The translations under genes were made by a program, and so were the position numbers. The notes beneath the pieces were generated by a model, which was given only the letters and a program-made list of their open reading frames with translations, did not search any database and was not told the DNA's origin. A stretch of 63,546 nucleotides of DNA, counting the filler, from Squatina squatina (lineage: Eukaryota), in NCBI GenBank assembly GCA_031763465.1. It is 4 parts of 4 records of this genome, joined end to end, with 100 filler letters (N's around TTAATTAATTAA, not from the genome) between each part and the next. Parts side by side here need not be neighbours in the genome. Positions count along the whole stretch, not along the records: positions 33,838 to 50,522 come from JARFOE010000222.1; 3 more parts are not named here. One strand, 5' to 3'. Shown here one piece after another: positions 3,691 to 50,522 of the stretch (the stretch's first letter is position 1; every line of letters starts with the position of its first letter).

Positions 3691-5499
3691 CAGGTTGCCA
3701 TTTTGGCTGTGTCGAGACACAAAATTCAGAGCGGAACTTGCTCGTATCAAGATTTCTGTTAAACAAACTGTAAACCTGCATGACTAGGATGAAGCATTTT
3801 AACCTTTTCAATGACTGCATTACCACTTTCTACACCAGAGTGAGAAAAACGGCTATTTTTTCCCAAGTGAGCTAAGAAATGTTCTTTTGTTTCGGTACAT
3901 TTCCTTAAGTGTTCTGTTACTATTAGAACCCCCAAAACAAAAAAACTGCCCACATGCACAGACTTATGGATTTTTAGAGCTAAAAAATGGCCTTTTGCCA
4001 CTCGAGGCTTAAAAGAGAAATACTTGGTCGTGCTAGTGTCTCTTTGTTTTAGTGGTTCTGCTGAATATAACAGCCATCTCTGAAAGCCTGTTAGTGGTTG
4101 TGAGGNNNNNNNNNNGTGAGGCTGTGAGCCAGAGCTAGGGAGCAGGTGCAGGTTCTAGGCCTCAGCAGCTGGGCCGAGAGTGTGCAGAGAGCAAGTGATT
4201 GGTGCAGGCATGTTTTATGTATTGGGGTCTGTTCACCATTGTTTTGTCATTTTAAGATTCTGCACTGGAAACGGCAGCTTGGTCGATGCCAGGTGGTGGG
4301 CCTGACTCATAGTGGGGGGATAAGGAGGGAGGAGTTTCGTTTTCTATTTTCTCATTTGTGTCTTACCAAAAAAAACTCAAGCTGTTTTTAAAAAACCCTT
4401 TGCATAGTTAGTGAAGTTCTTTTATATGTCGAGTTCTTGACTGCACCGTCTGGAATTTTAGAAAATATAACAGGACATCAGAATTAAAAAATAAATACAA
4501 GTCTTTTTTCCACTTCTACAATTTGTCATGCTGGGACATTAATTATTAAGTTTTTTTTAAAACCAAATTTTCATAATCGGGAAAAGGAAAAAGCAGATCT
4601 CAAATCATGATAAGGTAACATCCTTGTGTGATTAGTGACAAGTGGTAATCTGTTCTGGTGGCAAATAAATGGTATTCCTGTATAACCCGACTGCTTAAAG
4701 TGTAATTCTTCCTGGATGGGCCATGAGCAAAGTAAGTAATTAAAGGGAAGTTCCCCCATCATTAGTTTGGTGTAATAATGATTTATGGTAATGACCCTAG
4801 ATTAGGGCAAGGTAAGCACACAATTACTGACTGGGTATCTATTGCAGCAGTTCAGCTGCTGGCTATTTCTTCAGTAGTTGCGTCTTCCAAAGTTATTTTT
4901 ATGCAGTATCTAGTTGCTTCTATTTGAACACGTTGGTGCCCCAGTGGCCTCTATCATAGAACAGGGAAGCAAATTATTTACCTGCCTCTCATTTCAGCAC
5001 TACTTTTGGGNNNNNNNNNNNNNNNNNNNNNNNNNNNNNNNNNNNNNNNNNNNNNNNNNNNNNNNNNNNNNNNNNNNNNNNNNNNNNNNNNNNNNNNNNN
5101 NNNNNNNNNNGACACAGAGAGTCTTTAGAACCTATCACTTTTTAATCCAGGTCAATTTGTTGGTATGGTTAAGATCTGACATTTGTAAGTGGACTAGCAA
5201 GAAGTCCTGGACCCTTAAACTATAAGAAAGGGAGATACAAACTCATTGCATTGCAGAAAGAAAATGCAGCTATAATTGCTTAGTGCAGCAAAGTCTCATG
5301 TGAAATCATCAAATTTTTTAAACAGAAAAATACAATTCATCTTTTTTGAAAGTTGACCAAAAAAATTCTGAAAATATTACAACCATGCCCACAGAGATTC
5401 AGAGAATACGCCGTGAGAGCTGGGCTTTCACGTTTGTACATTATTATTCCCCACCACACAATAGCAGGTGTAATCCAAATAACTGGACTGACATGACAA

Positions 5500-33837: not shown

Positions 33838-34014
33838 GCACACTCACACACTCTCACATACTCTCTCTCACACACACTCACACACACTCACACACACACT
33901 AACACACATTCACACTCACACACACACTCAGAAACACTCTCACACAGACACACTCATGCAATCACACACACACTCACACAAACATACACACACACTCACA
34001 CTCTCACACACACT
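33838..34014. repeat. imperfect (CA)n/(CACT)n microsatellite
   Basis: Directly visible. Confidence 0.95.
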
Positions 34015-35744
34015 TTATATTTTCAAGTTTGACATAGGCCAGTGACTTTTCATGTATTATCTTATCGGACATGAACAATAGCAAACCCCTCAATATAATG
34101 AGAAAAACTGCTTGGCATCTGAGCGCCAGATGATAACAAGATTGGTGTCAATTTTTAAATGGCTCCATATAGAAACTTGAATTATTCATTGCAGTTCTTA
34201 TCCTATTACCAATCTACATCCATTCAGCAATCTTTAGAACTCTCCAGCACAACAAACATTAGCAGCCTTTTAAGTGCCAACTGTCGGATTTTGAAGCTGG
34301 GATTCAGTGGATGAATCAGTATTTCACCCGATAAATTCGCTGTTGAAGCTGAGAAATTAGAAGATCAGCTGATGATTTCTAAAAATCATAGTTACAGCTG
34401 TTTCATTTCGTGTTTGACCAAAAATAAATTATATATAACAAACAAGCTTCTAAAACGCAATTTTTAAAAGCTCTTCAATTTCCTCAAAGAGGCTGATGTC
34501 TTACGTGACGATTCATCTTCTTCCATACTGGTTGGAGACATTTTTTTAAAAGAAGGAATATGTTCCCTGGTGTGAAAGGATTGTTTTGCTTTATACGATC
34601 ATGACTCTCACTGCACTTAGAAAATTCCCAGCTTTTGTAAATACCTGTACAATGGGGAGTAGGATTGGAGTGGAGATGAGCTTTAAAACATACGCTTGGA
34701 TTCCCCTGTTTGGAATTCTGCTGTAGGGGGTGAATTGCAGCATCTGGTTATGTTCTGTAACTTTGAACGTTGCTTTCAGTTGTTTACTCACCCATACCAT
34801 GGTCACCAAGGTTTACTCCCCACACTTGTTCCTGCAAACCACGTTTTTTTGAATAAAAAAAAGTTTCATTGTGTAATCATTGTTATTTTAAGTAAAAAAA
34901 AACTTGCTTGCAGGGTCAAATAGCAATATAGTCTATAAATTACTGTTGCCGATAATAGCTAGGAATGCTGAATACACTCATATGAGATTCCTCTGACAGC
35001 TATTTTAATGGAGACGTTACCCCATTTATTTGAAATGCCTAATGCCTGTTAAAATAGCAGACAAAGGAATGCCATAGCAAGGCATTAAGCATTTGTCTGC
35101 TGGTACCATATCACAAAAACAGTCATTTCTAGCCTCTTATTCTGTTTTTGAAACCTTAAAACATATGTTTGAAATGTACATCAGCATGGTAAAGGGGATA
35201 TTTAATGTTTTGAAGCAACCTATGATCATAAATCAGTTCTAAGGTTTTGTCTTGATGACACTGAGCCCTTCTTAGACCTCCTGAAGCGACTTAAAAATAA
35301 AAATTAATTAATGGGAACCTCCCGCATGGCAGATGCGATTAATTCAGTTAAGAATTAAATAAAAGTTTGGGATGTAACCATTTCTGTTGCTTAGCAAAAG
35401 CTCCTCAATATACTGGCATACCTCTCTAAAGCAGTTTATAATTCTCTGACCGCCATCTTGTAAAAATGGAAATTATACCACAACCTCCATAGGGGATCAT
35501 TTTCTCTGGTTGCTAAGTGTTAATCCATTCATAAACCTAGCAGGAGGATTTCCTATTTATTATTTGCTAAAAGAAGAGAAAACTGAAGAAATCATCACAG
35601 ACACAATTCCAATGTCGCTACACATTGTGAGCAGAGAGGTTCCTGCTCCATATAGATGTAAACTCAATAATGAGTGTCTTTAAGCCCGCTCTGATAGATG
35701 GGGATTGACTTAACTTATCTCAACCAGGGCATCTCAAGTCTGCT

Positions 35745-35898
35745 TTGCCATTCAATTAGATCATGGCTGATATTCTATCTCAAATCCATTTTCCTGCATT
35801 ATCCCCATAGCCCTTGATGTTATTAATATCTGGAAATCTATCAATCATTGTCTTGAATATGCTCAATGACTGAGCACCCACAGCCCTCTGGGGTAGAG
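35745..35898 (-). mobile_element. CR1-type LINE 3' fragment
   Basis: Close to 7780-7870 (gccattcaa..agatcatggctgat...tatccccata.cccttgat). Confidence 0.8.
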
Positions 35899-35998
35899 NN
35901 NNNNNNNNNNNNNNNNNNNNNNNNNNNNNNNNNNNNNNNNNNNNNNNNNNNNNNNNNNNNNNNNNNNNNNNNNNNNNNNNNNNNNNNNNNNNNNNNNN

Positions 35999-36215
35999 AC
36001 ATATAGGCCAGACCAGGTAAGGATGGCAAATTCCCTTCCCTAAAGGACATTAGTAAACCAGATGGGTTTTTATGACAATCCGATGGTTTCATGACACAGC
36101 TTTTTTATTCCAGATTATTTAATTAACTGAATTTAAAATGGTGGAATTTGAACTCACGTCTCTGGATTAGTCGTCCAACCCTCTGGATTATTAGTCCTGC
36201 AACTTAACCACTACA
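35999..36215 (-). mobile_element. tRNA-derived SINE 5' half
   Basis: Minus strand reads gtagtggttaag...ctaataatccagag...gagttcaaattccacca...ctaatgtcctttagggaagggaatttgcc, an A/B-box-like head and a body common in shark genomes. Confidence 0.7.
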
Positions 36216-36296
36216 CTACTGAGTCCCCATTATCAGCAGCAGAGATAGAGTTATTAACTTCAGGGTGGTTCAGCAATTTATGTCATTTAGGAACAT

Positions 36297-36612
36297 AGGC
36301 CTAAAAATTGGTTTAGGCCTGATTCTGGCTGCCAGAAGCTTGTGGCCCGAGGCTCACCTGAAATTGGGCTTTGGGCCTCATTATAATAATTGTAGCGAGT
36401 TGCTGGTGCTTCCAGAGGCTCAGACTGTTGGCCGACTCCGAGTCGGAGCTGACTGATTTTCCGCCTGCCCCAACTGACGAGCTCCACTTGCGCACACAGC
36501 TCACCAGAAGCATGTGAAACGGCTTGGACCTCACAACAGTAACCACCAGCACGCAGTAGACACACTTCACTTGCCAATCACCCATTTTGTGCCAAAGGTT
36601 AAAATCGGCCCC
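36297..36612. mobile_element. GC-rich MITE-like element
   Basis: Starts aggcctaaaaattgg and ends aaaatcggcccc. Similar termini occur at 43-56, 30297 and 58675. Confidence 0.4.
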
Positions 36613-37121
36613 TTCACCATTTACTAGAATCAATTCCAAACCTATAAAAGTATCGAATACTTTAGCCGGGTGACCCTTTATTAATGCACCCTCATTCATC
36701 ACTATCTCATGAAAGAGGAGTGATAACAGGGTTTTACCTTGCACAGTGGGCCCTTTCCATGTTGATGACTTTGGATGCCATAAGTCTGATTATATTGAGG
36801 GCAAGTGAAGCATTTCATGCAGCTTAATCAGTGATACAGCCATAAAAATATATGTTACGTTAGAGAATGTGTTAATGTTAAGAGACATTTTATAGAGAGG
36901 ACATTTTTAATATGGTTTTATCTGTTACTGAACAGATGTGTTGCAATAAAGGTTTGGCATATCAGAAAGGTTGTTTTATATTATGATTCTCACTCAATGA
37001 CGAAGCTCTATGTAATCTGTGCGACATTATCAATTGTGGTATGTAATAGATGGTCATGCAAGAGCGAGTGTTTTTCGCCAAAAATATACTTAATGTTTTA
37101 ATGCTGCTGATTTTTGTACAG

Positions 37122-37267
37122 CAAAAACCAATGTGAATGAAGTTGAGAACCAGAAAAAGTTGAACCTGTGGAACAAAATTGCCACTCTCCTCGTTGGGGC
37201 CATTGTCCTCCTGAACGTATTCATCACTGCATTTGGGGCAGGGAATAAAGACTCGATGGTGACCTAA
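37122..37267 (+). CDS. ninjurin-family protein (NINJ2-like), last coding exon with second transmembrane helix and stop
   Basis: Acceptor gatttttgtacag, phase 1. Translates (A)KTNVNEVENQKKLNLWNKIATLLVGAIVLLNVFITAFGAGNKDSMVT*, versus recalled human NINJ2 ARLNLNEVEKQWRLNQLNNAATILVFFTVVINVFITAFG. The NVFITAFG signature and intron phase both fit. AATAAA at 37802-37807. Not in the ORF track. Confidence 0.85.
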
Positions 37268-38529
37268 GGAAGACCAACTCCCCCATCGTGCAGGCAAAAT
37301 TGAGCGGCAGCATTTTAGAATCTCCAAGATGACGACTACATTCCTACAGCAGTATTCCAGACTTTGTGTCTGTTGTTTCACTCGGGCATTTGTCCAGTCG
37401 GTCTACTGAGGACTTGAGCTGTGCCAGAGGATGTAAAGCAACTCTAGTCCATAAAAAAAGTTATTGATAAGCATTTGAATATTAATTCATAGATGGATAA
37501 TTTGCTCTGAATGTTGCACACTCTTCATTTGGGCATCACCATTCTGTGATGCCTGCAGCTGTGCACTTATGCCTCTGGATGGAGCTTCATAAACCTTAGA
37601 AGCTGCAGATCCCCATTCCTGTACCAGCACTAATGTAACCTGAGGGAAATTAGCTTTGTCTAGACTTTTTTGGGCAAAGTCAAAGGAGATCAGATAGTAT
37701 ATTAAAATACTCAGTTTGCTACTCAGTTGATATTTCAAGGAATAGGGATCACAGTATACTATCTTGCATCATATGTTAACCTGAGATGAGCAGCTGTTTG
37801 TAATAAAGGTTTTGCTCCCTGCCTCACCGAGGCATTAATCTCATGTCTGGAACCATTTAGCTAAAAAAAAAGTACCATTAATTTCACTGAAATAAGAGAT
37901 TTATGTTTGCCAGCATTTGTTTTATTTTTAATTTTTTTTAAATGGTTGTCCCCAGCTGACTCACTGCTGCACTCAATCATATTACTCGTGGGTATGTAGG
38001 AGTGGCCTGTGCCCATTGTGCTTAATCAGTATTTTCTGTTTCTGCACTACATGTACTTTAGTTTGTGTTTGCCAGTAGCAAAACATTCTGTAAAATTACT
38101 GTTGAATGTAATGTATTCTTATTAACAATGTCTGAAAGAACTAAAATTGGATTTTTGGCTTAGACTTGCAAATTTGGAACTGCATTTTCAAAATACTTGT
38201 TCCAGTTTGGTTTCTTTTAACACGAATCCAAAATTTCCTCATTAAATTTTGTGTGCTCTGACTAAAATTGAAATAATTTCATCTTTTTTGTGTTTAGGTG
38301 AGAGCATCAGTCCTTTTTTCTTCCTTTCCCCTGTTGTCAAATGCCATGTTGTTTTGAGACTTAAATGGCAGGTGATCTACCATTGCACTACCAATCTTGA
38401 TCTGAAACTGGCTACATGGAAGTGTGAAAAACTGGACGGGAACAATTCACACACCGATGTTCTCTCCTGTTTCTACCTTGCATTTGGGAAATGCCGTCTC
38501 AGCCACAAGGCTGAGTTGGAACCCAATAA

Positions 38530-38701
38530 CCTAGAGGAGTATAACAAGTGTCGGGGTGAAATTAAAAAGGAAATTAGGAAAGCAAAGAAAGGGCATGAGA
38601 AAATACTGGCAAGTAAAATCAAGGAAAACCCAAAGATGTTTTATAAATAACCAAAAGGGTAACCTGTGTGTGAGGCGGAAGACGTGGGTATGGTTCTGAA
38701 T
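38530..38701 (+). mobile_element. CR1-type LINE ORF2 fragment
   Basis: LEEYNKCRGEIKKEIRKAKKGHEKILASKIKENPKMFYK, the CR1 endonuclease-RT linker. Confidence 0.85.
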
Positions 38702-39225
38702 NNNNNNNNNNNNNNNNNNNNNNNNNNNNNNNNNNNNNNNNNNNNNNNNNNNNNNNNNNNNNNNNNNNNNNNNNNNNNNNNNNNNNNNNNNNNNNNNNNN
38801 NCCTTTTAAATTAAGAGAAGAAAAATTAAATCCCTTTTCTACCAAAACATATTTGATGACACCAACGATATTCATTGACAATGTATTGCCTAGACTGGGG
38901 GTACCAACCAGTCTAGAACAAAAGTGGAAGCTTATCGATAGATAAATTGGGGAGAGTAATGCACAGAGGTGTCCATTTGTGAACTGCTCTCCCAGGACAG
39001 TAGTACAAAAGTGCTTTTATTCTCCATGCCAACAGAAACTGAAGCAGTGGTCAGATGAGGTTGTTATTTTCAGCAGGTCAAATTGTTCAAGGGATAATGG
39101 CTCAAATGGTTTCTTGCAGTAGATGGCAGAATATTTATTTCTGCATGTTGAGCTGCATTCAGAAAATGAGGATGGCAATGGCCATTATTTTTAGTCTAAT
39201 TTTCTTTATTCCCTGCACTCTGAAG

Positions 39226-39478
39226 GAAGTTTCTGAAAAGTCTGACCCGAAAGGAACCTTGTGAATTGCTGTTGGTGATTGGAACAGGAGTGAGTGCTGC
39301 TGTTGCTCCACATATACCTGCACTGTGCTCATGGCGAAGCTGTATCGAAGCAGTAATCAATGCAGCTGATGATCTCGAGGTGCTTCATCCTTCTGATATT
39401 GTGGAGTTCCGTCACAAAGTAACAGAAGATCGTGATCTTCTTGTGCTTGCTCATGATCTAATCCGGAAAATGTCACCA
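39226..39478 (+). CDS. FAM118A: FAM118A (SIR2-like domain), internal exon
   Basis: KFLKSLTRKEPCELLLVIGTGVSAAVAPHIPALCSWRSCIEAVINAADDLEVLHPSDIVEFRHKVTEDRDLLVLAHDLIRKMSP. ALCSWRSCIEAV matches recalled FAM118A rather than FAM118B. Acceptor AG at 39224-39225, donor gtaagt, 253 nt, adjacent to SMC1B as in human. Confidence 0.93.
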
Positions 39479-40821
39479 GTAAGTCACAATAGTGTTTCGA
39501 GCTGTAGAGTAAGACATTCACATGTTTCAGAGAAATGCCTGTAAACTTAGATGTACAATATCTATTTACTTATTTGGTGTTTGAGTAAACAGTTTTATTC
39601 TGAAGGTTAAGTTTTAGCTATCCTTCAAATGTTTTTTTGGGTATTCCTTCCAGAAATGGCTGGGAAAAAATATTTCTGTTGCCCACCCAAATAAGCTGAA
39701 ATAACTGACGTGTTATACTGGCAGCTGTTCTGCTGACACCTAGATTGTGAATGTTTTGTTTTTGTTGACATTTATTGCTTCCAGCTCAACTGAGTCTATT
39801 GCTTTCCAAGTTGTGAAGCATTAACCACATTAATGTTAGGAGGAAGCTGAGAGCTGATACAATGAAATCAGAGGTGAGAACGATCAATGAGAACAGTATT
39901 AACCTATGTGGCTCTTTTTTTTTCTCAACCAGCAGAACTCCTTTGACGCTGCTTATCGTGAGTCCAAAGTTACACTGTTGCAAGGGGAGTGGGTGCTGGG
40001 GTGTGGGAGTTGTGAAAGGATTTCTAAAGACTTTAATGGCAGTTGTGCTCCGGAACATCAAGGTTAATGTTTTTTGATTATTTTCTGGAAAATAAAGTTT
40101 AAACAAATACACTGCTGGTAGATAAATAAATACATGATTTAANNNNNNNNNNNNNNNNNNNNNNNNNNNNNNNNNNNNNNNNNNNNNNNNNNNNNNNNNN
40201 NNNNNNNNNNNNNNNNNNNNNNNNNNNNNNNNNNNNNNNNNNATTTAAGTTTGTAAAATAAAAGCCAAATCTTACTTTCACAACTTTTTTTTATGAAATT
40301 GGGCAGTTTGAAAAGTACTCCCCAAAAGTTTTTCTTTCCTAGTAATGTTATAGTTGTGCTAAAACAAAACTTAAATACCTTAGTTTTTCGGTACCCTGCA
40401 ACATTCAATTGGTTTGCCTTTTAAAATATATTTTTGAGGCAATTGTTTCCGAAGTAAAAGTCACTTAAGCTCATCTCTGGTTGAAAACAGGCATTGATTG
40501 TGATAACTGATAATGTTGGTACAGTATCAAGAGAACAATAAGGCGGAAGAATAGCACTGAAAATGGCCTGCAGTACTTCCAATGTAGTATTTTTGTGGAT
40601 GATTTAAATACTGACCTTTACTGAACTTTGCGACTATGTTTACACACAGTGTGAAGTAATTGTCATTACAGTTTTGTTGTAGTCCTGAACAATCTGATCA
40701 CCTAATGACATCCAGTGCATTATATTTAGGATATTTATCCTTTACATACTTAAGGGGAACCATCCTCTTGAGAGGGCCCTGTAGCAATAATTAATGTGTT
40801 TGGGATTCTTTTTCCTGATAG

Positions 40822-41107
40822 GAAGAGTTTCAGGACCTGTATCGCACCAAGTCCTTTGTATTTTTGGGCTGTGGAGAAACTCTGCGGGATCAGATCTTCC
40901 AGGCACTGTTTCTTTATTCTGTTCAGGACAAAGTGGATCTGGAACACTTCATGCTGGTGCGAAAGGATAGCCATGACCATTTCTATAAATTGCAGGCGGA
41001 GATGCTTCTGCATGGGATTAAAATAGTATCCTATGGAGACCGATTTGAGTGTATGCCTCAGTATTTCCGTGACTTGGTGGCGCACATTTGCAGGCAGAGA
41101 AGCCCAG
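40822..41107 (+). CDS. FAM118A: FAM118A internal exon
   Basis: EEFQDLYRTKSFVFLGCGETLRDQIFQALFLYSVQDKVDLEHFMLVRKDSHDHFYKLQAEMLLHGIKIVSYGDRFECMPQYFRDLVAHICRQRSP. Acceptor tttttcctgatag, donor gtaagt, 286 nt. Confidence 0.93.
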
Positions 41108-42313
41108 GTAAGTCATCTGTTACTGGTGTTGAGTTCTTAAACAATGGTAATTTTGTTCCACATTGAGTATTGCTTTAAGCTGCAAATCTTTTTTGAGACT
41201 GTGGATAGATGCTACAATTTTTATAGAACTCTTTTTTTTAAGCGTAGTCAGATTAATCTTGGGATATCGAAGACAACAAGATAGGCAGACAAAATACAAT
41301 GAAACATTCTATATTTTTTGATTCATGTCTTGGGCAATGACACAGGTACGAGAATGAGAGGTTGAGTGTACAAATTCAACAGCACTTCTTATCCCATACT
41401 TGGGCAATTGCTCCCAAAGCAGTCCTTTGTTTGCTCATTCTGCATGAGGACCAGGATTACTTCCAGTACCACGTGCTAGTGAGTATAGGAACAGGAGAAT
41501 AGACCAGATGAATGCGTGGCTGGNNNNNNNNNNNNNNNNNNNNNNNNNNNNNNNNNNNNNNNNNNNNNNNNNNNNNNNNNNNNNNNNNNNNNNNNNNNNN
41601 NNNNNNNNNNNNNNNNNNNNNNNCTGAGAATAAATTTTAAAAAGTATTATTTTCCAAATATATTCAAAGATCGGACTAACAGATATCCTGCGGCATTGCT
41701 CATGGTAAGGCTACTTTATAACGCAGGTGCAACAAGCCATATCACACCTTACTGCTACGAATGAGAACTGTGTGTAACCTGGCCGACCTCATTAAGGCTG
41801 GATCTTATTGTAAATAAGCACATTGGGGGCCAGGGGCCGTTTTGGTAATTCATGCCAATTAGGAGGTATTCTGTGGTGCTGGTGGAAATTTCTCAGAAAT
41901 CAGCAGGAGAGAATGGGCTTTATTTCCTTTTTATTAAGTGACTGTAATTTGCACGAGTGTCACCTGAAGTGTGGGGCATGTGTCACAAAACATTATATAG
42001 ACTGTAGATCTCCCATCTTGGTGGGAGAGGGGAAAGAAATTGTCCCTCATGACTTCTGTTTTTTTCCTATTTAAGTGCAGGGTATTTACTTGAGTCACTA
42101 ACTTGTGAGCCTTTTGCCCTCGATTTTTGCCATAGCCTTGGGATTAACAGTGGTTGTCCGTGTAGTGCATAGGCTTGTAGAGAGGGAAGAGAAATCTTTA
42201 CTTTCAAACTTGTAAAATTTCAGCAAAGTCATCAATGACCTAGAACTTTGTAACTTTTCCTTTGGGGTGACTGTGCAATAGTTCCTTACCTTTGATGCCT
42301 TGATTTGTTGCAG

Positions 42314-42394
42314 GAACAGCTTGTTCAGATTGCGCAAAGCGGAAACAAGAAGAAAATGGTGGCATACTTCAAAAAAGGATCCGAAAAGCAAATG
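42314..42394 (+). CDS. FAM118A: FAM118A near-terminal exon
   Basis: (G)TACSDCAKRKQEENGGILQKRIRKAN versus recalled human GNACQDCAKRKLEENGIEVSKKRTQS. Acceptor tttgttgcag, donor gtacat. Confidence 0.82.
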
Positions 42395-43416
42395 GTACAT
42401 TTAGAACAGGAATATTTTAGAACGTCATTATTTTTGCCTCCTTCCCCCCACCCCCTCCTTTTTACCATGGGCCCAGTTTCTGCAGGTCATATGTGAATTA
42501 GTCACAAAGCAAATGAGCAAAACCCTGCTCTGAGCAAGTATTGCAAGAGGCATAGAAAAACAGTGTGGGTATAATTTTACTTCTGGTTTTTAACTTATCC
42601 CCATCCCAATTCACTTTCCTTCTCTTCCCCCACCCCACCTCCGGCTGGCTAACCCATGGAGAAGGATGCTTTGGAATTAATATCTGAATTTCAACAGAAA
42701 TGGAAAAATCAGCACTGTTGAGAATCATGGAAATAAATCTCCTTAGCTTTCTTTGTGGTAGACATATGTCAATGCTACAATATNNNNNNNNNNNNNNNNN
42801 NNNNNNNNNNNNNNNNNNNNNNNNNNNNNNNNNNNNNNNNNNNNNNNNNNNNNNNNNNNNNNNNNNNNNNNNNNNNNNNNNNNTCTGAAAAGTCTGTGGC
42901 TTTGCTTTTTCAGGATTCAGTGTAAACCCTTCAGGTTTTCCAAAATTCTATAATTTAGTAAAGTGCCCATTATACTACAGGTTACGAGAATTCACTAATC
43001 TGATTTGGGCAATCACGACACTAATAGTCATCAGGAATATAAATTAAGCTTAATTCCATTTTTATGTCCTTCCTAGTTGGGGGCATTGAGGCCATTTGTC
43101 GTGGCCTCAATACCACCTTGACACCAAGGATAGAGTCTGGAGTCTTTTTGGTCTGTACTGCTTATTAGCAAACCAGCTGGAGGCTTTATCCATTGAGATC
43201 TTGATGAAGCTTTAAAAAGATGCTGTAACTAAAGGGAGTGAACAGTAAAATGGATGTAACAAATGAAAGGAAACTGAGCTACAACAACAATAAAATGGAA
43301 AAATGAGAATCATAGATGAGAAAGAAAATAAGATATCAAAGAAAAGAAAGACTCAACAAAAGTTTCAGAATGGCTGGAATGAAGGAATAAATGTTCAAAT
43401 TTAAATCTCATTACAG

Positions 43417-43439
43417 ATACTGATTTTGGAGGACCATAA
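43417..43439 (+). CDS. FAM118A: FAM118A probable terminal coding exon (coding part)
   Basis: Acceptor tctcattacag, phase 1 compatible with the previous exon. Gives (D)TDFGGP* versus recalled human DTDDAGGS*. Confidence 0.6.
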
Positions 43440-43859
43440 ATTGTCCAAGTAAAGCACCTTCACCGTAGTGCCATATCCTATTCCATGATGTTGGATGCAT
43501 CAAAAAATGACTGAAAACCTTTATTCACATCAGCACAAGTTGGCTTGGTAACTCTTTCCATAGAATAAGAACAGTACTTTGTAACTGTTGAGCAGTTGTT
43601 ACAATCATTAAATGAAAATCAGTGGCTCTCCTGCCTTCGTGGACTTAACTATTTATTGTAGTGCCTCGGGGAACGAAGTCTGGACATTGCTGCTGTTTTA
43701 CCAAGTGGGACTTGGTGGGGAAACATCCAGATGTAGTGTACATTTGTTTCAATTTTTATGTTTTTACTAAAATTACTATTTTAGATGTATAAATGTGAAT
43801 GCTATGTTCTTCACTGAAAATCATCCGTTTAATGTAATACGGAATAATTGAGGAAATAT

Positions 43860-43995
43860 TTAGCATTTCTGTACTAGATCTATGGTTATAATNNNNNNNN
43901 NNNNNNNNNNNNNNNNNNNNNNNNNNNNNNNNNNNNNNNNNNNNNNNNNNNNNNNNNNNNNNNNNNNNNNNNNNNNNNNNNNNNNNNNNNNNCCT
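43860..43995 (-). CDS. SMC1B: SMC1B probable terminal coding exon, interrupted by an N gap
   Basis: Acceptor gcaattacag before 43995. After the gap it reads IITIDLVQKC*, resembling the SMC1 terminal VLTLDL motif. Confidence 0.5.
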
Positions 43996-44131
43996 CTGTA
44001 ATTGCAACTCGGAGTGCAAGTGGATAAATCATTTAAGCTCAAAGAAATTTGGTAGTTTGAAGTCAGAACACACAAAAGAAATACATTGCAAAGTTATAAT
44101 TGGAACATAAAGTTTCTGGTTGGAACAGTAC

Positions 44132-44242
44132 CTCTGGATATACGCCAATTAGTGCCTCGGCTTTTGAATAAAACTCCTCTTTCAGTGAGATCACAATCAC
44201 TTGGAAGTTCTTCCTGGATTGATCTCTGATGTAATTTGTAAC
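44132..44242 (-). CDS. SMC1B: SMC1B penultimate exon (C-terminal ATPase head)
   Basis: [37 protein letters not shown]. Acceptor ttcttgttctcag, donor gtactg, 111 nt. Confidence 0.92.
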
Positions 44243-44839
44243 CTGAGAACAAGAACAAATGAATTTTTTTTTTACAAAAAGGCAGGATGTGATACCCAAA
44301 AATGGTCAGCCTACCCATGAGACAGAGCAACTTTGTGCACTCCCCACCCAACTGTTGGTAATGCTAATTCTCTGGAAAGGTCAAAAAGGCCAGTGGCCTA
44401 TTTCAAGAAAATCTCCAGCAAATTCTTCCGGACTCCATAAGAGAATCAAACAAGCATCAAGCAACTATGGATTTATCACTTGGCGAACATATGTAACCAA
44501 AGTCCATTAACTTAACATATCTAAATCAACTTGAAATTTCCTCCTGGTGTACCACTGCACATATTTTAGTATAATCTGCACCATAGCATATTACTCTCAT
44601 CCTCAAGATCATTGATCACGTTAAGGGTCATTCTGATTCTGGCCACTTATGAAAATATAGCACTTCTTTATGCTGATGATATTGTCATCTCACTTGAGGA
44701 TGTGCTTTACTCACCANNNNNNNNNNTTTGATCAATGGGATATGATGATGGATGCCCCAAATGTGGTCTATAGCTTTGGACAGTTTGAGAGATCTCAAAA
44801 GACACAAGCGGTGTCAGTTTTAATTGTTGCAGTACCTGG

Positions 44840-45000
44840 AAATGCTGTGAGGCTGAAACAGACTGTTCGCAGCCTTGGTGTCATATCTGACCCCGGCATG
44901 AGCTTCCGACCACTTGTCCATTCCATCACTAAGACTGGCCATTGCCACCTCCGTAGCATTGTCTGCCTCCGCCTCAGTCTCCCCTCTTGTGCTGCTGCAA
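44840..45000 (+). mobile_element. L2-clade LINE RT fragment
   Basis: LKQTVRSLGVISDPGMSFRPLVHSITKTGHCHLRSI, an L2 RT thumb-region motif. Confidence 0.8.
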
Positions 45001-45954
45001 NNNNNNNNNNNNNNNNNNNNNNNNNNNNNNNNNNNNNNNNNNNNNNNNNNNNNNNNNNNNNNNNNNNNNNNNNNNNNNNNNNNNNNNNNNNNNNNNNNNN
45101 AAAGTGGTAAATAAAGTGCAACAAGAGCAGAAAAATAGATGGGAGTGAGCGATGAACAATTTAGATTTAAAGTATAGTAAGTAGGTGTGAGAAGGATGCC
45201 TTGCTGTGGACTGGTGCTCATGCAGCTTGTTTAATTGATGAGCTTAAAATCAAAAGCAAGGTGGAAAGAAAAGAAACATGGTCCTTTTTTTTTAAATGGA
45301 TGACAAGCAAATGAAGTTTAGCCTGTCCTCATGGGGCTGTAGCTGAAGGTTCCCATTCCTGTCCTATTTGACCCTAGTTTCTTTAGCACTGTATGCACAG
45401 CAGACACAACGGGGTAGGTTCATGACTACATCTGGCCTGCATCTGACCTTCAAGGAGTAACTGGGGACTGACAATTTGAGGTCATCCTACTCCAATCTGC
45501 ATTTATTGTACTGAAAAACCCCCCATGTAGATAACTAAGGGGTCTGCAGAAAAGTGAAACAAATGGGTTATTTATGTGTGCTGTCTTTTGTCAGGAATCC
45601 TTCATGGATACCAGATCAAACATCTGTACAATATTCTACCAAGCTCTGCGTAGCTGAGCTCCACAGGACGTTGTTAATCTGCAATTATCTTGTTGCTTAT
45701 AAGGTCATAGGGACAAACCCACATGAGTTTGAAAATCTATAATGGTATAGCTACTGTACCAACACGGGCATTACATTTTCTAGCTAATTATTGGAAACCC
45801 GCTTCATATAGGAAAAAGGTTGGCATTTTAGAGAGCTGTGCATGTCGCAGAGCTGAATATATTTGTGGGCAATCATTGGCTGGATTGCACGCAATAGTCA
45901 AAGTCAATCCAAGGTTGAGTACTTCAATTATTTTTACTCGGAAATCTGTCAGGA

Positions 45955-46380
45955 CAGATTGAATAGACTGGGGCTTTTTTTTTTAAAAAAAAAAGGAAGG
46001 CTATAGGGTGATCTGATAGAGGTCTTTTAAAATGATAAAAGGGTTTAATAGGGTAAACATAGAGAAGATATTTTCACTTGTGAGCGAGATCAGAACTAGG
46101 GGCCATAAATATAAGATAGTCACTAATAAATCCAACAGGAAATTCAGGAGAAACTTCATTACCCAGAAAGTGGTTAGAATGTGGAACTCGCTACCACAGG
46201 GAGTGGTTGAGGCGAATAGCATGGATGCATTCAAGGGGAGGCTAGATAAGCACGTGAGGGGAGAAAGGAGTCGAAGGTTATGTTGATGGGGTTAGATGAA
46301 GAGGGGCGGGTGGAAGCTCATGTGCAGCATAAACACTGGCATGGCTCTGTTGGACCAAATGGCCTGTTTCTGTGCTGCAA
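45955..46380 (+). mobile_element. CR1-type LINE 3' end
   Basis: MIKGFNRVNIEKIFSLVSEIRTRGHKYKIV...FITQKVVRMWNSLPQGVVEANSMDAFKGRLD plus the gaccaaatggcctgtttctgtgctg tail. Confidence 0.9.
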
Positions 46381-46475
46381 ATACTCAGCTCAATGATTTT
46401 ACAAAGTTTTGCTAACGACAAACAGATACCAGAGCAAGTTTTAGGTTACAAATAAATTAGGAAATTATCACTCTA

Positions 46476-46628
<153 letters not shown>

Positions 46629-48569
46629 CTAGGAAGTAAAGTAATTTTTTCCAATAGTTTCCTGCAATTAAATGCTTAAAGAGGAACTCTCCTGAATTGA
46701 AATGAAAAATAATGAGCATCCAGGAGTGGCTACAAAATGGTTATCTTATTGAAGTGTCCACAGCCTTATAGACCACTGACAGTAAAATGCTGAAACCAGA
46801 GAGAAGGACAGAGCCTTGACTTCGAAATTACTCCTCTGTACCAATTATTATTTTTTGTTAAATAACGTCTGTGTAGAGCTCATAGAAGTTTTACTCTTCA
46901 AGAGGAAAGTGTCATTTTCTGGTGTACATTTGGTATTCAACTATTATATTTCAGTAAATGTGGAAAACACTAACATTAGTCTCAACTCTTCTGGCAATAT
47001 GATTCACTGACTTTTTCATGGCCTCATTTACCAGTTTTGATTATTTCCAATGTTTCATTTTCTTGTTAAATGTATTTTCTTTCTACTTTTTTCACCATCA
47101 GAAAATACAGCAAAATCAAACCAGGCAAATGGCAAATTATTACAGTTGTGCTTCTTGTCTGCGCAGTCAAATATGAACAATGAAGGTCGTATGGTTAGAT
47201 ACATATTGTGGATTTTCTTCTCAATTACCTTTTGGTCAGGGAGAAACTGCACAGCCTTCCAACTGGCAAACAGAGTGAATTGCTTTTTTGTTTCATGTTC
47301 TTTCACCATTCCTTACTTGAATCGGTTTCACTTTATTACATTTCATGACTTTATGTAGCAATGACTTGCATTTCTTTCCATTACCATCAAGTGACTGAAA
47401 CCAGATATTACATACATTTTTCAAAACAAAGCAGCTGGTGGAATAGCTCAAGTAGCAAAGCAGTGCCAATGAAATGCATGTGAAAATCCTTTCTAAGATG
47501 AGCACCATCAGTATTTCTTTGTGAAAATGAATACGACTCACTCTCCTGGAGATATCTTGAAGTGTCATTTGTTTGATCTTGGTGCAAATGGATACTAATG
47601 ATCCAGCCAATCATATCCAGTTATTTCCCAACTACTAATGTTTGACATTTAGAAGTTTGCTCATCCTGACACCCTGATTCTATCCCATTATTAACTGTAC
47701 AAAATTAGAACCACAGGTTGGTCACTATTCAGGTGGAAGCTTTCTGTCTATTATTTCACAAACATCCCATATGAATAGCTATATAGTTCTTGAGAGGTGA
47801 TAGGGAAATAAGCAAACAAGTCAGGTAGAATCTCCTTTTATTTGCCAGTTCCCCTGAGGATACAAATTAAACATTTTTTTTGTTCAAATAGATTTGTATT
47901 CCTATTTATGTTGCTTTTGTGAGCTTCCATGCACCTGAAAGGGCCACATATTCTCATGATTCTGATTTTAGAGGCACTTCAACACTATTTTCTTTACTTC
48001 ATTGCTCCAGAAAGATTATGTTATTAATTTGTCCTGGTATCTTATGCATAGCCTGATGTAGAGACAAACACTCTACTTCTTGTGCGAGCAGTTTCAGGCT
48101 GCCCCACTAAATACTGTTCAAGCTTTTAGGGTTTTACTTTATTTACTTGTGGTGAAAATGATTCTGAACAGCCTAAACATAGTGGACCTTCATTATTACA
48201 AAAAACTACTTTTAAAGAGCCAGAATCCATTTCTGAGACCAAACAGTTATAATTAATATTCCAGTTTTGATTTGTTTTGTCTTATTCATTTTATGTTTCT
48301 CACAAAAACAAAATTTCAGGCATGACTGCTTCTTTACCAAAACTGCTTACGAGAATATAGATCAGCCATGATCTAATTGAATGGTGGAACAGGCTCAAGG
48401 AGCTGAATGGCCTACTCCTAGGCAAGTGGCGATGAATAAGCCTGGTTCTTCCCATTAGATTTGAATGTCNNNNNNNNNNNNNNNNNNNNNNNNNNNNNNN
48501 NNNNNNNNNNNNNNNNNNNNNNNNNNNNNNNNNNNNNNNNNNNNNNNNNNNNNNNNNNNNNNNNNNNNN

Positions 48570-49314
48570 AGGTAGATAAAAGGGATAAGGGAATGGAGTT
48601 CATACAATGAGTATAGGACTCACTGTATGAACTCCTTTCTAACCCAATATGTAAAAAGCCCAACAAGGGAGGATTCACTGTTGGGTCTCATAATGGGGTA
48701 TGAACCAGAGCAGATAAGAGAAGTAAAAGTAGGGGAACATCTAGGCAATAGTGACCATAATATAATACATTTAAGATGATAATTGATAAAGACATAAGTA
48801 TGACAAAAAACGGGTAATAGATTGGAGAAAAGCTGATTTTGAGGGGCTGAGAGCAGAATTTTGGAATATAAAACTGGCAATAATATTGGCAGAAATGATG
48901 TAGAACAGCAATGGGAAACATTTAAAACGATGTTCAACAGAGTGCAAGAACAATATATTCCGCGAAAAGGAAAGAACAAACTAAACACAAATGAGACTCC
49001 ATGGATGAAGAAAGCCATAAGGGAACAATTAAGGGTAAAGAAAGAGGCATACATTACGTACATAGACAGCAGTGGAGTGCATGATCAGGGAGAATACGAA
49101 AAGATTCGGAGAGAAGTCAAAAACAATTAAGAAGGCAAAGAGGAACTATGAAATTAAATTATCAAGGAATATAAAACAAAATAGTAAAATATTTTACATA
49201 CTCAGCAATATAAAAAGGAACGTTGGGCTGGGAATAGGGCCATTAAGGGACAGACAGGATAATACCACAGATAACGACATAGAGATGGCAGAAATATTAA
49301 ATGATTATTTTGCT
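48570..49314 (+). mobile_element. CR1-type LINE ORF2 fragment (endonuclease end and linker), decayed
   Basis: EHLGNSDHN motif, QWETFKTMFNRVQEQYIP, PWMKK and EMAEILNDYFA, with frameshifts and stops. Confidence 0.9.
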
Positions 49315-49853
49315 NNNNNNNNNNNNNNNNNNNNNNNNNNNNNNNNNNNNNNNNNNNNNNNNNNNNNNNNNNNNNNNNNNNNNNNNNNNNNNNNNNNNNN
49401 NNNNNNNNNNNNNNTAAACAAAAACAGAAAATATAGAAATATGCAGCAGGTCAAGCAGCAATTATATAAAGGACAGAAGAGATGATATTTCAGATGTGGA
49501 CATATCAGAAGCATATTATAGCTAAAACAGCAAATCTCTGCTGGACCAAATAGCCAATAATCTGTGACAAGAGGGTATTCATTCTTACCTGATTTCTCTT
49601 ACAAAAACAGGAAGGTGGAAATAGCATGACAGAATTTAACCGTAAGCACTTATACCTTTATAACTTTGAGACAATGACTCGGTCTTCCCACAGCTCCTTG
49701 TAAATAACTATTAATGCTTTTGTTTATATAGTGGAGTATATATTTTTTTCTTTTTTGTTTGCATATTGGAGTCATTTCTATTGGCCCCTCACATGAAATG
49801 CATTCTAAAATAAATTGGATAATCTCGTATTGCATTTAATGTAATGTACTTAC

Positions 49854-49970
49854 TTCGTTCATTTGATGCTGAATCTCCTGCATTTTCACTTCTCTATCCT
49901 CAATACTCAAACTCACCATAGCCATTTGGGACTGCAAATTGGCCAGTCCACTTTCTAGTTTTGACCTTTC
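49854..49970 (-). CDS. SMC1B: SMC1B coiled-coil exon
   Basis: ERSKLESGLANLQSQMAMVSLSIEDREVKMQEIQHQMNE, similar to SMC1 EKSKLESELAN...KMNQ. Acceptor cttttttaag, donor gtaagt, 117 nt, phase 0-0. Confidence 0.85.
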
Positions 49971-50522
49971 CTTAAAAAAGATTGCATATATTAGGATCAT
50001 AGTAGTGCACATTTTCCCCATACTGCATTAAATAAAGAGGATATTTTGGCTCATAGATTTGGCTGCGCAGTGCCTGTTTTCTGAATGCTAAATAGCCTAT
50101 GTTCCCAATATGCTGTACTTTACCATGCTTGAAACAAGTATTTACAAATAGGTGAGGCCCCAACTTCAAGATTGGCTAGCCCTGAGGCAGTTTGTTCCAG
50201 TGCTAGCTGCGCTCATTAAAAGCAGACCTCGAGTTTGCCTGCAACCTACATGTGAGCCTGGAATATTACTTTGAAAAATTGCAAGGGGATTCAGGTTCAA
50301 ACTAGTAAAAGGTAATTTTAGGTCCAATATCAGGAAATTTTTCTTCACACTATGAACAATCAATGTGTAGGATAGACCTAGATATAGTGGAGGGAAAAAT
50401 CCTGTAATCATTTAAGAACTAACTGAATGCTACAGCAGGGGAACTTTAAGATCTCTCTGTTTCGGTGAGTTAAGAAGGGATGATTGGTCTTCCTCAACAA
50501 TAATTATACTGTAATCTTTTAA

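Follow-up and report, generated by a model that had tools for sequence, protein, structure and literature searches.

The window, a stretch of 63,546 nucleotides of the Squatina squatina genome made up of four parts, carries in the third of these (positions 33838-50522, equivalent to G000:C222:2,053,296-2,069,980) the genuine last coding exon of a ninjurin gene. This exon lies on the plus strand at 37122..37267, belongs to a gene that is likely NINJ2, and encodes a cytosolic linker, the last membrane helix and a short tail. It follows a splice acceptor AG at 37120..37121, opens with two bases that complete a phase-1 codon, and runs on for 47 open codons to a TAA stop at 37265-37267, with Leu117, Lys120 and Gly127 (NINJ1 numbering) among its residues. 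The exon frame scored 38.9 bits (E 9.5e-11) with a ninjurin profile from which the cartilaginous-fish clade had been left out, against 9.5 bits for the runner-up frame of the window and 10.2 bits for the best of 30 shuffled windows. With the Pfam Ninjurin family (PF04923) the exon alone reached 25.3 bits, slightly below the cut-off of 26 bits, and its upstream partner exon, described below, 72.1 bits. The top PDB match of the exon peptide was human NINJ2 (E 3.4e-7, versus 1e-3 for NINJ1), and the peptide is 93% identical to a sawshark ninjurin-2-like protein. All seven matches of a search with this peptide were orthologues of the window gene (64-93% identity), as were 11 of the 12 matches of a search with a full-length orthologue, which came from sharks, rays, skates and a chimaera and were called 'ninjurin-2-like' or 'ninjurin-2' where the source gave a name.

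The 3' untranslated region begins directly after the stop codon and is covered at 37268..37374 (plus strand) by contigs of two sequencing runs, X1 and X2, which derive from relatives at about 94% identity and may be RNA; the X2 contig extends for at least 255 letters unlike the genome past 37374. An AATAAA at 37802..37807 on the plus strand is a candidate poly(A) signal and constitutes weak evidence, since 20 such hexamers occur in 15,775 bases of the stretch; one more falls within the coding sequence, at 37244. Thus a preliminary description of this DNA, which had proposed a spliced phase-1 ninjurin exon with a stop and a downstream AATAAA, closer to NINJ2 yet divergent from it, was borne out on these points, if feebly for the hexamer. 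Two segments of the 3' region are repeat-derived, one at 37500-37670 with 38 diverged matches in the genome and one at 38520-38700 with very high contig depth.

We then searched the genome with the Pfam Ninjurin family. Six matches were found among 13 scored candidates: the window exon, an exon on contig C647359, the last exon of NINJ1 on the unplaced contig C824729, two exons on C16, and a weak match on C234 (E 0.77, with an internal stop). The C647359 exon (L001:557-785), on an unplaced contig of 971 bases, ends in a phase-1 donor and is the upstream partner of the window exon. It is 81% identical to the same sawshark protein, and the two exons joined give 124 codons with no internal stop. 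The splice join is known from a relative rather than from Squatina squatina itself: in run X2, a contig of depth 62 reads through the upstream exon and on for 29 bases from 37122, the start of the window exon, with two substitutions there, another of depth 66 starts at 37121, and a contig reading the intron has a depth of 4.7. The ninjurin gene to which the window exon belongs is intact. That the exon might instead be a relic without a working gene would fit the absence of upstream exons from the window stretch and the Lys that the upstream exon carries at position 91, in contrast to the Gln of all other rows covering this column. We nonetheless regard this as extremely improbable, as both exons have open frames with matching phase, the splice join is seen in a relative, and orthologues make up all seven of the peptide matches. 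The Lys91 could be a change in this species or an assembly error; the relative in run X2 differs from Squatina squatina at L001:752. A Q91A substitution impairs NINJ1.

For the first coding exon, a search with a 17-base motif returned three matches with one mismatch, none of them on C222, and these candidates were rejected because the reversed control gave as many. On the plus strand at C222:2,003,915 (L020:3915-3970) we noted an exon-like stretch with an ATG and a GT donor that weakly resembles the N-terminus of a horn-shark isoform of the window gene (12 of 18 residues, E 0.03). Since it sits among minus-strand WNK1 exons, this stretch may serve as an alternative first exon that lies antisense within WNK1; it seems to be out of frame with the next exon. 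Stretches that are similar to each other and resemble the 5' exon end seen in run X2 occur on two GC-rich unplaced contigs (L076 and L077), and one might speculate, from matches at chance level, that the first ninjurin exon is repeat-derived.

The gene order along C222 is Wnt5, ERC, RAD52, WNK1, ninjurin, FAM118A, SMC1B, RIBC2, FBLN1 and Wnt7. Upstream of the ninjurin exon (2.0566 Mb, plus strand, identified by profile and homology), exon matches placed a Wnt5-type gene at 1.755-1.757 Mb (minus), ERC exons at 1.9485 Mb (minus) and RAD52 at 1.9558 Mb (plus), followed by WNK1 exons at 1.999-2.006 Mb (minus), whose best PDB match is WNK1 (121.8 bits, with 98.9 for WNK3 and 80.2 for WNK2). The RAD52, WNK1 and ERC exons thus lie 50-110 kb upstream of the ninjurin exon on one scaffold. 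Downstream, across a 100-N scaffold gap at 38702..38801 that divides the ninjurin contig from the FAM118A contigs, the window holds a FAM118-family coding exon at 39226..39478 (plus; PDB match to FAM118B, E 1.3e-22), which we assign to FAM118A from its neighbours SMC1B, RIBC2 and FBLN1. A further coding exon at 40822..41107 (plus; open frame with AG/GT ends and no Pfam match) is, we presume from its position, probably also part of FAM118A. It is followed by an SMC1-type C-terminal exon at 46476..46628 (minus; Pfam SMC_N, E 4.2e-5), taken as SMC1B by position. SMC hinge and SMC_N exons come further along C222, as do exon matches to RIB43A, a fibulin-like gene and a Wnt7-type gene, reaching through 2.21-2.24 Mb.

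These neighbours are found on two human chromosomes. Human 12p13.33 carries, in order, B4GALNT3, NINJ2, WNK1, RAD52, ERC1 and WNT5B (PMC8303811, excerpt), and 22q13.31 carries WNT7B, ATXN10, FBLN1, RIBC2, SMC1B, FAM118A and UPK3A (PMC12111097, excerpt); an ancient block of wnt5, wnt7, erc1/2, atxn10 and ninj1/2 has been described (PMC8851819, excerpt). C222 is therefore the human NINJ2 neighbourhood still joined to the genes of 22q13.31. The orientation of the genes at the human NINJ2 locus we take to match the strand pattern in the shark. While the exon does lie 5' of FAM118A, as first described, the supposition that no mammalian ninjurin corresponds to this locus is not borne out, given RAD52, WNK1 and ERC, which stand upstream in the order of the human NINJ2 neighbours. 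The simplest reading is that the shark retains the Wnt5-Wnt7 block whole and that a later break, in the human lineage, would have fallen between NINJ2 and FAM118A, leaving the former at 12p13.33 and the latter at 22q13.31. Most likely, then, the ninjurin gene kept its place beside WNK1, RAD52 and ERC and the block split later at its side, rather than the gene being the extra or relocated paralogue initially suggested.

The C222 scaffold is rich in gaps and its joins may be reference-guided. The ninjurin exon sits on a contig of 2.7 kb between 100-N gaps and is the single exon anchoring the gene to C222; 28,957 of the 50,177 bases (58%) in the interval from WNK1 to ninjurin are N. B4GALNT3-type exons were not placed on C222 in a search for the CHGN family, nor was anything placed there in a search for the ATXN10 family; a frame at L072:1953, which we take to be ATXN10-like, had no Pfam match. 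The sequenced portion of 200 kb around the locus yielded no second ninjurin exon. A weak ninjurin-like tblastn match just after the RAD52 exon (L015:5999) was discounted, as the profile search did not recover it. A second block of Wnt7, WNK (2/3-like), Wnt5 and ERC lies on C16 at 3.84-5.07 Mb (L035, L059-L062). It is likely a sister to the block on C222, and NINJ1 would be expected to lie there; 80 kb of C16 upstream of the second WNK, where much of the sequence is N, yielded no NINJ1 exon. The literature we searched yielded no paper on ninjurin synteny with WNK, nor one on the synteny of cartilaginous-fish ninjurin-2-like proteins or on the exchange at positions 95 and 127 described below, and sharks go unmentioned in the accessible part of a paper on turbot NINJ1 (PMC12799870).

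Is the window gene NINJ2? We consider this likely, a view that is carried by synteny, as the neighbours on C222 match those of human NINJ2. Similarity scores lean the same way, the sawshark orthologue scoring 109.5 bits with NINJ2 and 92.8 with NINJ1. At nine columns that separate NINJ1 from NINJ2, the cartilaginous-fish clade has the NINJ2 state at five, the NINJ1 state at one and neither at three. Hagfish also has three of these five NINJ2-like states, which are therefore possibly ancestral. Position 102 is of the NINJ2 type throughout the clade, the NINJ2 state at position 129 has a plurality of only 0.33 and Squatina squatina has the NINJ1 residue there, and the NINJ1 states Asn43, Ala47, Val102 and His112 are absent, with Thr, Met/Val, Ala and Gln in their places. 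As for separate NINJ1 and NINJ2 genes in this species, the C824729 exon attests the former, and no canonical NINJ2 exon was found in three genome searches, which also missed the middle exon of NINJ1. A second, canonical NINJ2 could be hidden in assembly gaps, since the assembly is incomplete, with that middle exon missing and 58% of the WNK1-to-ninjurin interval N.

Sequence trees cannot decide the orthology. Rows were chosen from 223 proteins, leaving out truncated and near-duplicate sequences; 20 representative rows were named by look-up, group labels of unnamed rows were assigned by similarity, and only two rows of the invertebrate group bear names. The largest tree (90 rows, 107 columns) gave a solid cartilaginous-fish clade (100/99) on a long branch (0.63), placed in a starred group (99/92) with NINJ1, a second teleost clade, lungfish and hagfish and not with NINJ2, which was itself paraphyletic; this placement counts against NINJ2 orthology. 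The base of a 29-row vertebrate tree was a polytomy, and the nearest outside rows in a 31-row tree were three NINJ2 proteins. AU tests rejected none of three placements of the clade: with NINJ2 (p 0.24), with the second teleost clade and lungfish (p 0.37) or with NINJ1 (p 0.20). Two distinct teleost clades are both named 'ninjurin-1' (P0039, P0044, P0053, P0067, P0050), with one catfish carrying one of each, and the lungfish protein is named 'ninjurin-1-like'.

These results bring in two other origins for the gene. It could have arisen beside WNK1 as an ancient tandem sister of NINJ2, with the lungfish 'ninjurin-1-like' protein or the second teleost 'ninjurin-1' clade as its orthologue, canonical NINJ2 being either lost in cartilaginous fishes or concealed by assembly gaps. 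We think this unlikely. The corresponding placement is not rejected by the AU test, the lungfish protein is 56-59% identical to the clade (bat NINJ2 being close at 60%), more than half of the upstream interval is N, and most RefSeq names carry '-like'; yet the Amblyraja protein is named plain 'ninjurin-2', the lungfish and teleost candidates lack the NINJ2-type Ala102, and neither the sequenced part of the 200 kb nor the three genome searches revealed a second ninjurin exon. The position of the gene, moreover, equals that of human NINJ2, with an orientation that we presume to be the same. A still less probable origin, which we credit with very little weight, is that scaffolding placed beside WNK1 and FAM118A a gene that in fact lies elsewhere and arose by an independent duplication, perhaps of NINJ1, in cartilaginous fishes. 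The small contig between its gaps, the unplaced partner exon and the grouping of the clade with NINJ1 in the largest tree would all suit such an error. It is improbable, however, that a misjoin should hit the position of human NINJ2 by chance, the sequence scores favour NINJ2, and the stretch at C222:2,003,915 among the WNK1 exons bears its weak resemblance (E 0.03) to the N-terminus of the horn-shark isoform.

Our preferred reading is thus an intact NINJ2 orthologue in an unsplit Wnt5-Wnt7 block, with a predicted reversed contact at Phe95/Gly127 and probably without membrane-rupturing activity, and we hold it to be quite probable as a whole. Human NINJ2 (PDB 8SZB) is the best PDB sequence match and shares the neighbours WNK1, RAD52, ERC1 and Wnt5, as well as Thr43, Ser59, Val93, Ala102 and Gln112 (NINJ1 numbering), K45 and D53. 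It differs in having B4GALNT3 where the shark has FAM118A as the other neighbour, in having Gly95/Phe127 rather than Phe95/Gly127 and Gln103 rather than Leu, and in Lys44 and Lys65, which are replaced by hydrophobic residues in the shark gene, and in Asn120, which is Lys in 7 of the 12 clade rows. The RefSeq proteins XP_067855824.1, XP_032893432.1 and XP_007892894.1 ('ninjurin-2-like' or 'ninjurin-2') are direct orthologues within the supported clade, with 64-86% core identity, known from automatic annotation only. With human and mouse NINJ1 (PDB 8CQR, 8SZA, 8UIP, 9BIA) the window gene has in common the fold, according to the model described below, and a hydrophobic residue at 117; Ala47, Lys44, Lys65, Gly95 and Phe127 of NINJ1 are not kept.

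The most distinctive of these differences is the exchange of residues between positions 95 and 127, to which the partner exon contributes Phe95 and the odd stretch of the window exon Gly127. All 12 cartilaginous-fish rows, which represent a single evolutionary event, have Phe95 and Gly127, and none of the 77 other rows with both columns does; 58 of these 77 have Gly95 and Phe127. F127-G95 is the top co-evolving pair and links the helices of neighbouring subunits, G95L impairs filaments, and K45 and D53 form an inter-subunit salt bridge (PMC10307626, excerpt). A knob-and-hole pair between neighbouring subunits would thus have been inverted, and the reciprocal nature of the exchange suggests that side-by-side assembly is still under selection. 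As in NINJ1 and NINJ2, K45, D53 and I84 are present, in all 12 clade rows, as are T123 (9 rows) and A138 (8 rows). With the pair inverted reciprocally, oligomerisation would persist. We envisage a protein that would rest in the membrane as a three-helix unit and join side by side through Phe95/Gly127, and judging by its residues the shark protein would probably form oligomers.

Whether such oligomers would rupture the plasma membrane is less clear-cut. Positions 47, 57, 63 and 93 have been put forward as possible causes of the non-lytic nature of NINJ2 (PMC10307626, excerpt), and Squatina squatina has Met47, Phe57 and Val93, whereas its Gln63 is the NINJ1 residue. None of the 12 clade rows retains Lys44 or Lys65. 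Asn120 lies in the pocket that holds Lys44 of the resting dimer (PMC11711097, excerpt), and its replacement by Lys in seven rows is perhaps, speculatively, a second exchange. The bulky or NINJ2-type residues at 47, 57, 59 and 93, together with the loss of the two lysines, would make NINJ1-like lysis less likely. Gln103 of NINJ2 (117 in NINJ1) contacts cholesterol and has been linked to non-lytic filaments (review PMC12547243, excerpt). Its replacement by Leu in the window exon would count against non-lytic behaviour; Gln at this site does not define the NINJ2 orthology group, as no more than 4 of the 17 rows of bony-vertebrate NINJ2 have it. On balance, the residue pattern makes it somewhat likely that the shark protein is non-lytic for the plasma membrane. 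An AlphaFold model of the sawshark orthologue (P0001), of modest confidence (pLDDT 65, pTM 0.45), predicts helices at 25-58, 65-91 and 97-129, consistent with the amphipathic helix and two membrane helices that are a trait of the family. All six Foldseek matches of this model at E<=0.001 were NINJ1 or NINJ2, the best being resting NINJ1 (9BIA; rmsd 1.8 A over 105 columns).

The C16 matches belong to a third ninjurin, with an intact three-exon core outside the window at G000:C16:15,473,096-15,482,531 (L045:3096-3251, L045:~4950-5051 and L046:2385-2531), canonical splice sites and intron positions unlike those of NINJ1 and NINJ2, and hence unlike the single phase-1 core intron of the window gene. 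It retains K45, D53, Q91 and T123 of the ninjurin family, and has Ala95/Leu127; the window gene is 31-40% identical to the 14 rows of this third type (mean core identity 37%). A search with one of its exons gave 43 matches at 80-100% identity among 47 candidates, from sharks, rays, a chimaera, bichirs, sturgeon, gar, bowfin, eels, arowana, frogs, salamanders, crocodilians and lamprey. Mammals, birds, squamates, turtles and other teleosts were absent from these 43 matches, absences that are leads because there were few candidates. The number of ninjurins in humans is two (PMC12547243, excerpt). The C16 clade was supported at 99/98 and 100/100 and fell outside the NINJ1/2 group (99/91 and 98/99), although a single vertebrate clade including it was not rejected (p 0.16). 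Core identity within this type is 79-91% from catshark to lamprey, frog and crocodile, and 90% from catshark to frog, compared to 75% for NINJ1 from ray to tetrapod type. The proteins appear in RefSeq as 'ninjurin-1-like' or 'ninjurin-2-like' (e.g., P0182, P0201 and P0220), a search of the ESM Atlas with the C16 protein gave generic ninjurin clusters only, and we found no description of a third vertebrate ninjurin in the largely open-access literature searched.

Together, these findings make it likely that a third ninjurin lineage arose before the split of NINJ1 and NINJ2, is more conserved than either, has its own exon structure and Ala95/Leu127, persists in lampreys, sharks, rays, chimaeras, non-teleost fishes, eels, arowana, amphibians and crocodilians, and was lost towards humans. 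A third vertebrate lineage missing from mammals, raised earlier as an explanation for the window exon, thus appears to exist, at C16 and not as the window gene. Its surroundings at C16:15.51-15.56 Mb (L049-L053) include a gene with Ig V-set and C1-set domains, a BtpA-family gene and a NACHT (NLR-like) gene facing a PH-FYVE gene; at L051:4069, one frame weakly matches Lamprin (E 0.007), below the cut-off.

Why NINJ1 and not NINJ2 ruptures dying cells is an active question, with Gln103 and cholesterol, residues 47, 57 and 93, and the N-terminus as rival causes. Shark NINJ2 separates these, being without Gln103, bulky at 47 and 93, and inverted at the strongest co-evolving pair between subunits, and would therefore provide a natural test of the filament model and of the time at which NINJ2 became non-lytic. 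The C222 locus preserves a Wnt5-Wnt7 block that is split over human chromosomes 12 and 22, with the break adjoining NINJ2. The window gene was already annotated in cartilaginous fishes, and the greater novelty lies with the conserved third ninjurin of C16, which '-like' names have obscured. If our interpretation is true, this third ninjurin and the Phe95/Gly127 NINJ2 of sharks would be natural interface variants for studying the determinants of lysis.
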